Below, in pieces: positions 28,062-34,033 of a DNA stretch of 64,000 bases. The position numbers and the translations under genes were made by a program. Every line of letters starts with the position of its first letter. Positions within the stretch are counted from its first letter, which is position 1. The stretch is taken from the NCBI GenBank assembly GCA_038087875.1, contig CM075990.1, positions 14,634,001-14,698,000 on the forward strand. The letters are read 5' to 3'. The notes under the pieces were generated by a model. It ran no database searches. It was not told the origin of the DNA and was given only the letters and a program-made list of their open reading frames with translations. This DNA comes from Malacoraja senta (lineage: Eukaryota).

Positions 28062-31000
28062 TCATGCTTGTAATAGGTCCAAAAACGTAGACCACGTCTT
28101 TTGAAATTGATCTACTTTGCCTACTAGGAGGAATCTCATCTCTTCCAGATGTAATGTTTCCAACATATTTGATGTCCACATTTTTATTGTTGGTGTGGGC
28201 GCATTTTTCCAGAATTTAAGTATAAGCTTTTTTCCCATTATTAGCCCATAATTGAGTAAATTCTTCTGATACACGTTTAATTCAGGAATACCTTCCGATA
28301 TTCCAAAAATAATCCATTCTGGTTTTGGTACCAGTTTTATTTTGATTAATTTTGAAAAAATATCAAATATTTCAAACCAGAATTTTTGGATTTTTGTACA
28401 AAAAACAAAAGAATGTGCTATGGTAGCTTCTTGACATATACATTTATCACAGATTGGTGAGACGTTAGGAAAGATTTTATTTAGTTTGGTTTTTGAATAA
28501 TATAATCTATGTAATGTTTTAAATTGGATAAGCGTATGTCGTACGTTGATCGAGCATTTATGCACCTGTAATAAATGATTATCCCAACTCTCTTTTGAAA
28601 TTTTTATACCTAGATCTTGTTCCCAATCTCTTCTAATTCCATCTGTTGTGGGTATTTCTATATTTAAGATGATATTATATAAGTATGATATTAAATTAAC
28701 TGATTCCGCCTTTGTCTTCATTGCTTCATCTAGTAAGTCGGAAGGCATATTATAATAATCTTTTGTGTGTGTTTTCAAATAGTCACAGATTTGTATATAT
28801 TTAAAATATTGATTATTTTTCAAATTATATTTCAGTTGTAGTTGTTGGAATGATAGTAATTTTTCTAATTCATACAGATCTTCGAGCGTTTTAATTCCCA
28901 TTCTTTCCCATTGTATAAATGCTTTATCTATGATTGAAGGTTTAAACGATGGGTTATTGACTATTGGTATTAAGAGAGATAGGTTTCTTAATTTTAGATT
29001 CTGTTTTATTTGCTTCCATGTTCTAATAGTGCTATATATAATTGGATTTTTATTATAATTTTTATTATTCAAATTTATTGGAGAGAGAATAATCGCTCCT
29101 ATATTATTCGGGGAGCAATCCCCTTTTTCCATTATAATCCAGTCCACCTGCTGGGCAGAATTGTCCAGCAGGTGAATCATATTTTTAATATTTACTGCCC
29201 AGTTATAATACATAAAGTTAGGGAGCGCTAGACCCCCCAACTCTTTTCGTTTGTTAAGGTGTGTTCTTTGTATTCTGTGGGATTTGTAATCCCATATAAA
29301 ATTTGTAATGTCTGAGTCCAGTTTTTTGAAAAACTTTTTTGGGAGATATATAGGTATTGATTGAAATAGGTAAAGGATTTGTGGTAAGAAAATCATTTTT
29401 ATAGCATTTATCCTACCTATTAAGGACATCGGAAGTGTTTTCCAAAATTTAATCAGATTATTTAATTTCTTAAGTAGGGGATTATAATTAGCTTTAAACA
29501 TATCATGGTAATTTCTAGTAATCTCAATTCCTAAATATTTGAATTTTTCCATAGCTATTTTAAAAGGGAATTTCCTGAGATGTGTTGAGTCTTTTGGTTT
29601 AATCGACATAATTTCACTTTTGTTCCAATTTATTCTATATCCTGAAAAGGATCCAAAGTCCTCAATTAAGTTTAATATATTTGGTATACTAATTTGTGGT
29701 TTTGTGATGTACAGTAGTACATCATCAGCATATAGGGATAGTTTGTTGTTTGAATATTTTGTGTTATAACCGTGAATATTCGAGTGTGTTCTTATTTTTT
29801 CAGCAAGGGGTTCAATTACCAAAGCAAATAACAGCGGTGATAGTGAACATCCTTGTCTGTTGCCCCTAGATAATTCGAATTTTGAAGATAATATATTATT
29901 AGTTAGTATTCTAGCCGTAGGTTTGTTATATAGTAGTTTTATCCATGCAATAAAGTTTTCTCCCAATTGGAATTTTTGCAATACTTTGATCATATAGTCC
30001 CATTCTACTTGATCAAACGCTTTTTCTGCGTCCAGTGAGATGATAGCTAACTCTTGGTCATAAGATTTATGTGAATGCATTATGTTAAGCAAACGTCTCA
30101 AATTATTAAATGAGTGTCTCTTAGGTATAAATCCTGTTTGATCCTCATGTATTAGTCTACTAACATACTTGCTTAATCTATTGGCTAATGTTTTTGCTAT
30201 TATTTTCTGATCCGTATTTAACAAAGCAATAGCTCTATATGATCCTGGTTCTTCTATATTTTTATCTTTTTTAAGTATTAATATGATCGTTGATTCCGCT
30301 AGTGTTTCAGGTAGGTTTTGCTCTTTATAAGCATATGTATACATTTTTTGTAATCGTGGAGTAACTATATCATAAAAAGATTTATAAAATTCATTACTGA
30401 ATCCGTCTGGTCCTGGTGTTTTTCCATTTTTTAGTGTTTTTATTGTGTCTTCTATCTCCTTAGAAGTAATTTGTGCTCCCAGTTCCTCTTGTTCCCTGCG
30501 TTCTAATTGTGGTAGATTACAATTATCTAAAAATTCTGAGATTTTATTATTGTCTATTGACGTTTTAGATGTGTATAGATTCTGGTAAAATTGAGCAAAT
30601 CTTTTATTAATATCCTTGGGTAGTGTTAATACTTCCCCTCTATCTGATTTAATCTTTAATATTGCATTCTCTTTTTCCCGTTTTTTAAGTTGTCGTGCTA
30701 GAAGTTTGTGGGGTTTGTCCCCGAATTCGAAGTGTTCTTGTTTTGTGATTTGAAATAATGTTATAACTTTCTCTGACAGTAATTTATTTAACTGAAATTT
30801 CAGTAGTAGTATTTTATTATGTTTATCCATAGTTGGGTCTTTAGCATTATCTATATCTAACTGTTTTATTTGATCTTCTAAGTGTCTTTGTTCATTCTTA
30901 TTCTTTTTATTTTGATAAGCTTGAAATGAAATAATGACTCCTCTTATAAATGCTTTGAAGGATTCCCATAATAACGTGGGGGATATCTCTGGTGTATCAT

Positions 31001-31862
31001 TTAACTCAAAAAATAGATCCATCTGTTTTTTTAGATAGATACTCCCTTGAGGGTCTTTTAAAATTTGTGAGTTAAACCTCCAGAACGGTTTATTCATAGA
31101 CATTCCTTCTAGTTTTAGAACAAAAGTTAACGGAGAATGATCTGAGATCGCATTAATATGATATTTAGGATTCAGAGATTGCGAGATTAATTTTGTATCC
31201 ACTAGAAAATAGTCTATCCGTGAATATGTTTTATGCACCATTGAATAAAACGAGTAATCCCTTCCCGTCGGGTTTGCAATCCTCCATACATCTGTTATAT
31301 TTGTGTTTTCCATATATGTGTGTAAGAGTTCACTGGTTTTAGATTTCGTCTGACCTTTTTGTTTTTGCATCGATTTATCTAAATAAGGATCTAAAACACA
31401 ATTAAAATCTCCTCCGATTATAACATTTTGATAATTAGATTCTGCAATTATATTCAGAATTTTATTAAAAAATTGAGGGTTATCAAAGTTGGGCGCATAT
31501 ATGTTTACCAGCGTAATTGGCATATTATTGATCTCCCCTGCTACTATAAGATATCTCCCTTCCTTATCTAAAATAGTGTTCTTTGATTTAAATGGAATTC
31601 CTTTACGAATAATAATTGCAGTACCTCTAGATTTGGAGGTAAATGAAGAGTGAAATGTTTGGCCTATCCAGTTCGCCCTCAGTCTTGTCTGATCTTGCTG
31701 TTTAAGATGTGTTTCCTGTAGAAACGCTATGTCCGTGTTGTATGATTTCAACTGAGCTAGTATCTTGCCCCTTTTAATAGGTTCATTAATCCCCCTTATA
31801 TTCCAACTACATAATGTGATTCCTCCTATTTTCTTTTGATTGTCGTCATGCATTTTTACCAA
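28062..31862 (-). CDS. L1 ORF2p, 1266 aa (APE endonuclease, reverse transcriptase, C-terminal CCHC)
   Basis: APE motifs WNIRG, LQETH, NIYAPN, GGDFN, SRIDY, SDH. RT motifs PGPDG, YRAIALLN, LDAEKAFD, RQGCSLSP, YADD, KYLG. C-terminal CDKC-x8-H-x4-C. Confidence 0.96.
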   Translation of the reverse strand: MVKMHDDNQKKIGGITLCSWNIRGINEPIKRGKILAQLKSYNTDIAFLQETHLKQQDQTRLRANWIGQTFHSSFTSKSRGTAIIIRKGIPFKSKNTILDKEGRYLIVAGEINNMPITLVNIYAPNFDNPQFFNKILNIIAESNYQNVIIGGDFNCVLDPYLDKSMQKQKGQTKSKTSELLHTYMENTNITDVWRIANPTGRDYSFYSMVHKTYSRIDYFLVDTKLISQSLNPKYHINAISDHSPLTFVLKLEGMSMNKPFWRFNSQILKDPQGSIYLKKQMDLFFELNDTPEISPTLLWESFKAFIRGVIISFQAYQNKKNKNEQRHLEDQIKQLDIDNAKDPTMDKHNKILLLKFQLNKLLSEKVITLFQITKQEHFEFGDKPHKLLARQLKKREKENAILKIKSDRGEVLTLPKDINKRFAQFYQNLYTSKTSIDNNKISEFLDNCNLPQLERREQEELGAQITSKEIEDTIKTLKNGKTPGPDGFSNEFYKSFYDIVTPRLQKMYTYAYKEQNLPETLAESTIILILKKDKNIEEPGSYRAIALLNTDQKIIAKTLANRLSKYVSRLIHEDQTGFIPKRHSFNNLRRLLNIMHSHKSYDQELAIISLDAEKAFDQVEWDYMIKVLQKFQLGENFIAWIKLLYNKPTARILTNNILSSKFELSRGNRQGCSLSPLLFALVIEPLAEKIRTHSNIHGYNTKYSNNKLSLYADDVLLYITKPQISIPNILNLIEDFGSFSGYRINWNKSEIMSIKPKDSTHLRKFPFKIAMEKFKYLGIEITRNYHDMFKANYNPLLKKLNNLIKFWKTLPMSLIGRINAIKMIFLPQILYLFQSIPIYLPKKFFKKLDSDITNFIWDYKSHRIQRTHLNKRKELGGLALPNFMYYNWAVNIKNMIHLLDNSAQQVDWIIMEKGDCSPNNIGAIILSPINLNNKNYNKNPIIYSTIRTWKQIKQNLKLRNLSLLIPIVNNPSFKPSIIDKAFIQWERMGIKTLEDLYELEKLLSFQQLQLKYNLKNNQYFKYIQICDYLKTHTKDYYNMPSDLLDEAMKTKAESVNLISYLYNIILNIEIPTTDGIRRDWEQDLGIKISKESWDNHLLQVHKCSINVRHTLIQFKTLHRLYYSKTKLNKIFPNVSPICDKCICQEATIAHSFVFCTKIQKFWFEIFDIFSKLIKIKLVPKPEWIIFGISEGIPELNVYQKNLLNYGLIMGKKLILKFWKNAPTPTIKMWTSNMLETLHLEEMRFLLVGKVDQFQKTWSTFLDLLQA

Positions 31863-32253
31863 TTTTAATGACCTTAATTATTGTGGTGCGTTCATACCTC
31901 CGGACTCTGGTTATTTTGGGAGTATTTCTATTATAGACTTCCTTGGTAGTTCTCCTGCGCGATTGTCCTTGAAGAAAAAACACACAGATGTGACATATTG
32001 TGATTAAAAAAAAATATATATATAAATCAAATAAATTTACGGTGTCTAAAATTTCAACACCGTAGTGAGTGGCCCACTCGTCTGTGGGGTACGACATCCA
32101 TAACGCTTCCGGCGTAGTTGGTATAAAGTTAGCCCCGCTGTATTTATTACCCAAAATCTATGGGGTCATTACCGTTTCCAATTCAATTCTATTTCACCCA
32201 GTTACAATTTATATATATGTCAAATGTATTCGATTCCATATCCTACTCACTCT

Positions 32254-32835
32254 TTATCTCTTAACTATTTTAAAATGAATTTAGTATTGTTAAAGTGAGC
32301 GGTTTACTGAGTGGATTAACCGGAGTCAGGTTCCTGGAATTGTGCCAGGTGCCTGATCTCTTCTCCTCTCCACGAGCTGCGAACATAGGTGATAACTGCT
32401 GTCTGCGTTATGACGCAGGCACCACAGTTTTATCAGTTTCAAATATTATTTCTATATTAGTATTGTTAATTATTAATTATGATTAATTCTCAGCATTTTG
32501 TAAAACTATATAAGCCGTATATATTTTTCATATCAACCTCGAGTGTATATTATCTCTTAACTATTTTAAATTGATTTTAATATTGTTAAAAATGAGCTGT
32601 TCGCTGGAAGGGTTAACGGGAGTCTGGCTCCTGGAGTTATGCCAGGTACCCGGTCTCCCCCTCCCTCCACTCTCGAGCTGCATAGCACTTGCTGTTATCT
32701 GCTAAACAGAGCAGACTGCACATTTTTTATCTATTTCAATTGCTATTTCTATATTAGTATTGTTAATTGTTAATTATTATTAGTTCTCAGTTTTTTCAGT
32801 TTTTTATAAACAATATAAGCCATGTGATGTTTTTC
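32254..32835. repeat. ~296-bp diverged tandem duplication in the L1 inter-ORF spacer
   Basis: TTATCTCTTAACTATTTTAAA at 32254 and 32550, with ATTTCTATATTAGTATTGTTAATT present in both copies. Confidence 0.88.
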
Positions 32836-33072
32836 ACTCTCAGCCCAGCAGTTCGTCCCGTTATCAGGTTTTCCTCGTTTGAGCACGTAGTGTCCTTGAA
32901 TTACATAGCACAATGTTCCAGCGAAGATAATAATGTCTAGCCACGTCTCACTAAGAATCTGTTGCTTGAAGTCAAATAAAAAATAAAAAATCAGTGTTCA
33001 GTTAATTCACTTTCCTTGTGATATTCTTGTTGGAAGAATAAGCAAGTTCATTTGTTCATGTCGTCTTGGTTT

Positions 33073-33957
33073 TCAGTCTCCAGTTGATGCAGCCTTAGTC
33101 GCGATTTCTTGAGCGTATTTGAGAGATTCATCCGAATTAGTGAATGTTTTTGACACTCCCTCAAAGGTGATACGCATTCTAGCCGGGTAAAACACTCCAC
33201 ACAAAACTCCCTTAACACCATAAAGAACTTCTCTGGTCTGTGAGAACTTTCTTCTCTTTTGCTCAATCTCATAAGGGTAGTCCCGTAGGAGTTTAATAGT
33301 ATCACCTCTGTACATCATCTTCTCTCCGTGGTTGATTTTTTTCATCAGCGCTTCCATTGTTGAGATATCCCGAAGTTTAATTATGATCTGTCGTGGGTAG
33401 GCACGTTCTCCTTGAGATCTTGATTTAAATCTGGGGAGTCGATGTGCTACTTCAATTACAGGTACTTCTGGTAGCTTCAGTACGTGTTTAATTAGGTTGG
33501 CAGCGAACTCACAAACATTGTCCCCCTCAGCTCCCTCTTTTACACCACGTATTCTTATATTTTGACGTCTTGAGCGAGCTTCTAGGTCAACACATTTATT
33601 CGAAACCTTTGTGACTTGGTTCTTGAGACTATCTATTTCTGACTTCATAGTCTGCATCTCTCCAGCCATCACTTCCACAGCAGCTTCCAAATCATTCACT
33701 GCAGATGCATTTGCAGCCACAGTTTCGTGCACAGCCTCAAACATCTTTGTGGTCTCTTCTGCCACCTTTTCAATTTTTATCGATAGTCCTTTTTCCACAC
33801 CTTCAATTCTTTTTTGGAGAGCCTCAATACCCTCAAGTATTTTGTCATTACCGGCTATCAATTTACTGTTCCCAGCTTCCATATCATTTTTGATATCTCT
33901 TACCGAGTTTCTTAAGTCCTCCATTTCGGTTTTCTCTTTTGCAGATCGAGTAGCCAT
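33073..33957 (-). CDS. L1 ORF1p, 294 aa (coiled coil, RRM, CTD; Transposase_22-like)
   Basis: Starts MATRSAKEK, followed by a heptad-rich region, DLEARSRRQNIRIRGVKEG, AHRL, RDYP and FYPARMRI. The track's longer 349-aa version runs into an unrelated Rex1 fragment. Confidence 0.9.
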   Translation of the reverse strand: MATRSAKEKTEMEDLRNSVRDIKNDMEAGNSKLIAGNDKILEGIEALQKRIEGVEKGLSIKIEKVAEETTKMFEAVHETVAANASAVNDLEAAVEVMAGEMQTMKSEIDSLKNQVTKVSNKCVDLEARSRRQNIRIRGVKEGAEGDNVCEFAANLIKHVLKLPEVPVIEVAHRLPRFKSRSQGERAYPRQIIIKLRDISTMEALMKKINHGEKMMYRGDTIKLLRDYPYEIEQKRRKFSQTREVLYGVKGVLCGVFYPARMRITFEGVSKTFTNSDESLKYAQEIATKAASTGD

Positions 33958-34033
33958 TCCAGAGACCTCTCCAGATGAAGTGGGCCCCCTTTGTCTCCTG
34001 GCAACCAATATTTTTAGACCCAGTCCGCCACTG

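Follow-up and report, generated by a model that had tools for sequence, protein, structure and literature searches.

The window, the whole 64,000-nt stretch of Malacoraja senta DNA analysed here, carries on its minus strand an L1 retrotransposon whose ORF2, with the Pfam domains RVT_1 and Exo_endo_phos, places it in the L1 clade, and whose two genes are separated by a spacer of 1,219 nt (31854-33072), in agreement with the approximately 1210 nt reported in a preliminary description of the locus (Table 1). The copy is cut at its 5' end near 33975, inside ORF1, with the spacer whole and ORF2 intact, and the 347-aa ORF1 frame continues into the flanking DNA. The Pfam search of ORF1 gave no L1 match; a distant homologue of ORF1 nevertheless pulls out ORF1s, and then an L1-type ORF2, in the same genome. 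The family is young, 30 loci taken from the best 40 spacer matches being at least 99.8% identical, and a pattern for the hairpin core described below occurs at 1,347 places against 0 for its control; another pattern search, which let 432 whole copies through, showed a 3-nt length variant within the family. Every family comparison was made within one genome of 1.94 Gb. About 20 kb from the L1, in a GC-rich stretch of the window (53588-54715, minus strand), there is also a 375-codon frame with a NocA-like zinc-finger (nlz1) domain, which is an exon of a host gene.

Table 1. Features of the L1 element and of its ORF1-ORF2 spacer, in window coordinates
Feature	Position	Strand	Remarks
L1 ORF2	28062..31853	-	1263 aa, endonuclease and reverse transcriptase (Pfam), intact
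Spacer ORF	31846..32097	-	83 codons, AUG 32097 to TGA 31846-31848; TGA overlaps the ORF2 start as AUG-CA-UGA
Small palindrome CCAC-N6-GTGG	32074..32087	.	inside the spacer ORF; common to many L1 families
Motif pair	32105..32138	.	plus-strand reading CTTCCG...TAGC(C/T)CCGC; resembles, in inverted orientation, the beginning of the element's own 5' promoter
In-frame ACG	32115-32113	-	candidate near-cognate start of the spacer ORF
Duplicated unit nearest ORF2	32226..32522	-	copy 1 of the preliminary description
Conserved stem-loop (hairpin 1), copy 1	32301..32382	-	purine-rich 5' arm, two helices (32326-32356), 5-7 nt loop, then UUAA palindrome (32314-32321)
Second hairpin, copy 1	32401..32420	.	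confined to this lineage
Duplicated unit nearest ORF1	32523..32822	-	copy 2 of the preliminary description
Conserved stem-loop (hairpin 1), copy 2	32598..32683	-	palindrome at 32611-32618
Second hairpin, copy 2	32698..32715	.	confined to this lineage
L1 ORF1	33073..33975	-	5'-truncated: promoter and first codons missing

The spacer had been called unusually long, a statement that does not hold, because other families of the same genome have spacers of about 470-1,500 nt and those of fish, frog and lizard L1s measure 257-1,032 bp, with a predicted cripavirus-like IRES (Boissinot and Sookdeo 2016, PMC5381506). Those elements likewise have a long, AT-rich ORF1-ORF2 spacer with ORF2 translation unexplained, their 5' termini likewise start with GACTTCCGG, the frog ones carrying GAGCTCCG, and their long spacer is regarded as the ancestral condition (PMC5381506). 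That study found no RNA structure common to the spacers and put its predicted IRESs no more than 10 nt from the ORF2 AUG; here a stem-loop common to several groups is situated about 470-620 nt upstream of ORF2, the last 250 nt being occupied by an ORF. Because the sense spacer of the window element holds 15 upstream AUGs, among which the one at 32097 opens the longest frame, plain scanning from ORF1 is implausible, and the earlier contention that such a spacer requires another route to ORF2 is borne out.

All the sequence strings quoted in the preliminary description were found at their coordinates, and its two units of about 296 bp are there, spaced 296-297 bp and approximately 74% identical. 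In an older subfamily, with ORF2 about 92% identical, 11 of 21 elements have one unit and the other 10 have two, and the older double form shares with the young family the same breakpoint, at an AT microhomology. Judged from this breakpoint, the two units are the product of a single tandem duplication, a slippage event at the microhomology that is not required. As the older relatives carry one unit or two, doubling is optional and one unit is enough, and the importance formerly given to the tandem arrangement is not supported. The cores of the window copies each differ from the older unit at 12 of 79 positions (15%); the neutral yardsticks were 9 of 78 for ORF2 fourfold sites (11.5%) and 12-16% for the rest of the spacer, so that the cores diverge no faster than neutral sequence. 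Tandem duplication of a regulatory unit of 200-300 bp within an L1 lineage is likewise known from the monomers of the mouse L1 5' UTR and from duplicated UTR motifs (PMC5381506); unlike the mouse monomers, the duplication here sits in the spacer, arose once, reaches at most two copies and is optional. A peptide of 38-41 codons encoded by the unit on the sense strand, with its AUG at the foot of the hairpin, was rejected as a candidate product: constraint on it was not found (P 0.13 and 0.08) and its frame shifts in group I.

Folding of the duplicated cores gave z scores of -4.4 and -3.7 on the plus strand and of -2.2 and -3.3 on the minus strand, values that are unexceptional for L1 sequence given the -6.7 of a 100-nt ORF2 control window; the ORF2 stretch 29000-30200 scores -6 to -7 on the plus and the minus strand alike in windows of this size. 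When neutral decay was simulated from a central sequence, the fold energy of the real copies was found to be better kept (P 0.008 on the plus strand, P 0.029 on the minus strand). Within this lineage alone a double change affects 1 of 39 predicted pairs on the plus strand and 1 of 38 on the minus strand, and the conservation of hairpin 1 is clear only once distant families are included. The hairpin is common to at least six L1 groups of the genome, whose ORF2 N-termini are 67-81% identical to that of the window element, and in the six groups it follows ORF1 by 350-580 nt and precedes a second motif module by 240-380 nt. It was found by nhmmer in 5 of 30 loci drawn from a nearby-motif pattern (E 1e-8 to 2e-6), and two further hairpin patterns matched 249 and 323 places against 0 and 0 in the controls. 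Families first reached through the distant ORF1 query had no hairpin-like sequence, and the motif model run against families B and C and more distant ones gave one match in 26 loci, itself a member of the clade. Pattern matches in a metagenome scan are chance matches, since 0 of the 80 stretches (of 120) score with the model at E 0.001. In the family B spacer (L240), about 390 nt after ORF1, we also observed a hairpin of 7 bp whose loop is UUAA, together with a long sense tract rich in purines; this may be a distant version of the palindrome.

The covariation set consisted of 16 hand-picked variants from 45 distant loci plus five lineage types, with group M left out. For the 12 pairs of the two helices, 90.1% of cells are paired on the sense strand and 87.0% on the antisense strand; 5 of 500 shuffles, which ignore relatedness, gave a sense value as high, and slid partners gave 20-45%. 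Three of the 12 pairs show Watson-Crick to Watson-Crick swaps, that is, compensatory change: one is C-G in 5 variants, U-G in 6 and U-A in 5, being paired in 16 of 16 on the sense strand and in 10 of 16 on the antisense, and the two others exchange G-C and A-U. The number of covarying pairs is not above shuffle (450 of 500). Because the controls ignore relatedness and this count is no better than shuffle, we regard the support as good but not formal. Hairpin 1 as a predicted conserved cis-acting RNA structure, with pairing kept by compensatory change across groups, is well supported, and the earlier proposal of a selected cis-acting element is upheld for it by the covariation across families together with a fold kept above simulated neutral decay. 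Its least variable parts are the inner helix core and the GGUUAACC palindrome 3' of the inner helix; in this lineage pairing within the UUAA palindrome occurs as G-C, G-U and A-U on the sense strand, and group M keeps the inner helix core and the palindrome, with the middle helix lost. Only half of the fold put forward earlier is thus conserved, and the idea that the two hairpins together make up the conserved domain is not supported: hairpin 2 and CGAGCTGC are absent from the distant families carrying hairpin 1 and confined to the lineage. Rfam, also named in the preliminary description, returned nothing relevant, and the stem-loop, undescribed in the literature searched, is a candidate new Rfam family.

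A neutral spacer, in which an old inverted repeat is simply carried along and was duplicated by slippage, would account for the neutral substitution rate within the lineage, for the similar z scores of ORF2 and for the sufficiency of one unit. We consider it highly improbable, because the hairpin motif persists with compensatory pairs where the flanking spacer no longer aligns, and does so despite an apparent cost in truncation, to which we return below.

Both window copies fold better on the plus strand, two pairs favour the antisense, and the antisense pairing also beats shuffles. The consensus energy is -14.2 kcal/mol for the sense strand (minus in the window) against -7.5 for the antisense, and in single-sequence energies the sense fares better in 11 of the 16 variants. 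The lean toward the plus strand in the preliminary description holds for the two window copies and not for the family, where the consensus energy and the C-G/U-G/U-A pair favour sense, and the folded strand is probably the sense RNA. A reading of the hairpin as single-lineage and antisense was overturned by the distant homologues and the family-wide pairing. Under one alternative the folded molecule would be an antisense RNA started from the inverted promoter motif of the spacer, which the hairpin and its U run would end or cleave, so avoiding double-stranded RNA with ORF1. The orientation of the motif pair, the better plus-strand folding of the window copies, the stronger plus-strand result in the neutral-decay test and an 88-codon antisense ORF in the older unit would fit such a molecule; set against these are the family-wide pairing and energy, which favour sense, the confinement of hairpin 2 and the U run to the lineage, and the borderline standing of the antisense ORF (P 0.04-0.06, no homologue, broken in both window copies), and we hold this alternative to be very improbable. 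The antisense ORF itself, which fills the older unit (L220:1702-1968) and is hydrophobic at both ends, retains in the window copies one shared frame and a terminal stop (TGA, TAA, TAG); as a gene it was rejected on its P value and with no Pfam, Atlas or database support. A box H/ACA RNA, on the antisense reading, was likewise discarded: ANANNA occurs in one of three unit types, hairpin 2 is missing from the distant families and Rfam gives no match.

To look for a cut site, the junctions of truncated, inverted or deleted young copies were mapped by anchored patterns; once small-indel whole copies, out-of-window junctions and duplicates had been dropped, the rows kept were 57 of 73, 37 of 47 and 42 of 46. 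In copy 1 (32338-32380) the arm that the reverse transcriptase copies second holds 20 of 57 junctions against 7.2 expected, an approximately 2.8-fold excess (scan-corrected P 0.001), and 10 of 37 in copy 2 (32635-32681) against 5.6 expected, about 1.8-fold (P 0.04); the first-copied arm is unenriched (5 of 57 and 3 of 37). We infer that folding of the template or of the nascent cDNA promotes drop-off, at a small cost to the element, and the excess on the second-copied arm would indicate that, in vivo, L1 truncation is shaped by the structure of the template or the cDNA.

Non-LTR elements carry ribozymes. A self-cleaving ribozyme, or a nuclease site, releasing an ORF2 RNA, as the preliminary description had suggested among other roles, would have this precedent (PMC11620745), and the enrichment of junctions on one arm and the invariant internal-loop bases, which could be catalytic, could be read in its favour. 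The junctions are nevertheless spread over 43 nt, with a best 5-nt peak (6) that is equalled in the ORF2 control, so that we see broad enrichment only and no sharp 5' end at one cleavage position among the copies; in this analysis a cut RNA would go unseen unless it were copied. Moreover, self-cleaving cores (HDV-like, hammerhead, twister, twister-sister-like) have no Rfam match here at E up to 10 or, in a further search, up to 1, the CA that twister-sister-like cores conserve in a 5x6 loop is missing, and cleavage would destroy the full-length template. With no Rfam match and truncations that point to no single cut site, a ribozyme is unlikely, and we place it among the least probable of the explanations, at the level of the neutral spacer. 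The twister-sister-like ribozyme of the human L1PA7-8 5' UTR (PMC11620745) is likewise a small structured L1 RNA with an internal loop between stems; compared with it, the stem-loop here lies in another region, differs in loop sizes and sequence, and has neither the conserved CA cleavage site nor an Rfam twister-sister match. Splicing was also rejected, the junctions including five internal deletions, none of them recurring and the three inspected having no GT-AG ends.

Downstream of the stem-loop on the sense strand there is a three-part module (32074-32138) whose pattern gives 1,755 matches against 102 in the control with the window's family excluded; among the matches listed, the motif spacing is 15 or 18 nt in 100 of 100 rows. 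From the in-frame ACG onward all spacings are multiples of three, and the upstream frames vary. The likeness of the motif pair to the 5' promoter start is significant in family C (P<0.005) and not in families A and B, and CpG observed/expected is 1.13 at the module against 0.65 in ORF2. The module may serve as a promoter, as a near-cognate start followed by a hairpin, or in both ways; if it is a promoter, copies truncated at the 5' end, such as the window copy, could go on providing ORF2 protein. The 58 nt directly 3' of the motif contain 6 junctions, the background level, and show no cluster of 5' ends, and no copy begins at the antisense position, a blank search for retrotransposed RNAs starting at the module on either strand that we regard as weak evidence. 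We also noted 7 of 29 junctions within 18 nt at 32128-32145, 5' of the spacer ORF, an excess that is uncorrected for scanning and has no cap signature and that is possible as a subgenomic RNA start.

In a DNA-level explanation the palindrome of the stem-loop would be an enhancer-like element (an NFI-like site with Sox-like flanks) lying 5' of an internal ETS/GC-box promoter in the motif pair, ORF2 would be made from a subgenomic RNA and doubling would raise output. The resemblance of the motif pair to the 5' promoter start, with the family difference just given, and the CpG content of the module agree with it, as does the exact NFI consensus, TTGGC-N5-GCCAA (PMC12630593), in group J. This consensus is exact in group J only, however; the window copies match it at 7 of 10 positions, and in groups I and M the GCCAA half-site is lost on both sides with pairing kept, on which ground an NFI binding site was rejected. 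The retention of U-G pairs and of the outer helices, together with the missing cluster of 5' ends and the missing antisense-position starts, further makes the enhancer improbable. Except as stated in the following sentence, the Sox, HNF1, ETS and Sp1 labels applied to motifs here are names that we take to fit. ETS-like XrpFI and Sp1 sites are named for the L1 5' start in section 9 of PMC5381506.

The module and the spacer ORF that follows from it are conserved deeper than the hairpin and are a more direct answer to how ORF2 is produced, one missed by the preliminary description. The stop of the spacer ORF overlaps the ORF2 start as AUG-CA-UGA in 54 of 54 lineage copies in which the ORF2 start was found (56 examined) and as UAAUG in all 8 family B copies, stops elsewhere lying at -17 to +23 of the ORF2 AUG. 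The distance from motif to ORF2 AUG, 243-261 nt, crosses a homopolymer and a dinucleotide run; it is divisible by three at 132 of the 145 young loci and 22 of the 28 old ones, overlapping loci included. A long frame ending near the ORF2 AUG is present in 8 of 8 copy sets, and its median exceeds local shuffles (P<0.025) in 7 of them, set G not being significant (P 0.13), in a T-rich sequence that yields long frames cheaply. Among the older families that bear the hairpin, the frame is open to the stop near ORF2 in 8 of 31 copies and 41 of 43 have the stop nine bases before the AUG, and we read the closed frames as decay. In 14 of 15 comparisons (the remaining one is misaligned) the spacer ORF has dN 0.08-0.12 and dS 0.08-0.13, against dN 0.03 and dS 0.16 for ORF2, and the homologue search gave none beyond one weak match on a hydrophobic stretch. 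A conserved microprotein gene was rejected on these grounds, dN being about equal to dS with no homologue. Since the frame is kept, the amino acids are free and there is no homologue, translation itself, rather than the peptide, seems to be under selection. In the predicted product a hydrophobic stretch at the centre gives way to basic residues, as in a peptide that crosses a membrane once, a pattern that may be due to composition.

An upstream stop overlapping or near a downstream AUG is the arrangement of coupled termination-reinitiation, of which AUGnxUGA and UAAUG are textbook forms (PMC5972666), and is likewise found in caliciviruses (AUGnxUGA), in influenza B and SART1 (UAAUG) and in human L1. 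In contrast to those systems, the upstream frame here is an independent ORF in the spacer, about 80 codons long, instead of ORF1; it is under no sequence constraint, must itself be entered internally and has no TURBS at the usual distance. By reading the sequences, TURBS motif 1 (UGGGA) is absent shortly 5' of the stop-start and occurs only far upstream and in some variants. Mammalian L1 likewise has short extra ORFs beyond ORF1 and ORF2 (ORF0 and antisense ORFs, PMC5203782); the spacer ORF differs from these in being sense, between the genes and abutting ORF2, and in the accessible part of that source the extra ORFs described are antisense only, with no mention of a spacer ORF.

Taking the stem-loop, the module and the stop-start together, the order of elements in the clade is constant: ORF1, stem-loop, module, spacer ORF, stop-start and ORF2, with an open frame of about 80 codons running from the module to a few bases from the ORF2 AUG. 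We consider it probable that ribosomes translate the spacer ORF, beginning at AUG 32097 or ACG 32115, and that it is coupled to ORF2. The explanation that we tentatively put first is that the clade-wide stem-loop, doubled in this lineage, helps on the sense RNA to load ribosomes onto this short ORF, which would start at that AUG or ACG and, after the spacer ORF stop, reinitiate at the overlapping ORF2 start. The function of the stem-loop is here inferred from position alone: it lies approximately 250 nt from the proposed spacer ORF start (240-380 nt in the clade) and about 470-620 nt 5' of ORF2. That its role lies in this entry step, and not elsewhere in the L1 cycle, is plausible, though somewhat short of probable. 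As families B and C and those beyond keep the spacer ORF without hairpin 1, the hairpin is not a general part of the mechanism, and as an IRES it matches no known Rfam IRES family and is not positioned next to a start codon. The module, as an internal promoter, could equally make any entry element unnecessary.

The sense-RNA stem-loop could also be a signal for binding of ORF1p, ORF2p or a host protein, for nuclear export, or for dimerisation through the self-complementary GGUUAACC, the spacer ORF being independent of it. In line with this, the palindrome is the most invariant part and survives in group M, where the middle helix is lost, family B has its UUAA-centred palindrome at a similar distance from ORF1, and the distance from hairpin to start codon varies from 240 to 380 nt. 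On the other side, the stem-loop is always placed between ORF1 and the ORF module, the outer palindrome pair is broken in one window copy, and we know of no established dimer or packaging stem in L1; we find this signal doubtful. Returning to ribosome loading and reinitiation, its parts would by analogy behave like known cis elements and coupled reinitiation. The literature searched, mostly without subscription papers, gave nothing on the stem-loop or on an ORF2-coupled spacer ORF, and what appears new, undescribed as far as searched, is an optionally duplicated RNA motif together with a proposed coupling to a separate spacer ORF, not ORF1. Both offer concrete parts to mutate: the stem-loop has compensatory variants in nature, and the spacer ORF overlaps ORF2 through its stop-start.

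A broader and more speculative extension, which we regard as rather unlikely, is that the long-spacer L1s of this vertebrate are functionally three-ORF elements with their own ORF2 cassette, an ancestral arrangement simplified in mammals. The stem-loop would recruit ribosomes internally, these would start at the near-cognate ACG, lying in a relic inverted copy of the L1 promoter, the sequence-free spacer ORF would be translated with reinitiation at ORF2 afterwards, and mammals would have deleted the spacer and coupled ORF2 directly to ORF1. An inverted likeness of the promoter about 250-290 nt before ORF2 is also seen at L083, L085, L087, L239 and L240, and it may descend from an inverted 5' end that the spacer once captured. 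The spacers of L093 and L089 have a GC-box/ETS-like/CRE-like cluster about 100 nt before the aligned ORF2 start, in the orientation opposite to that of the module in families A-C.
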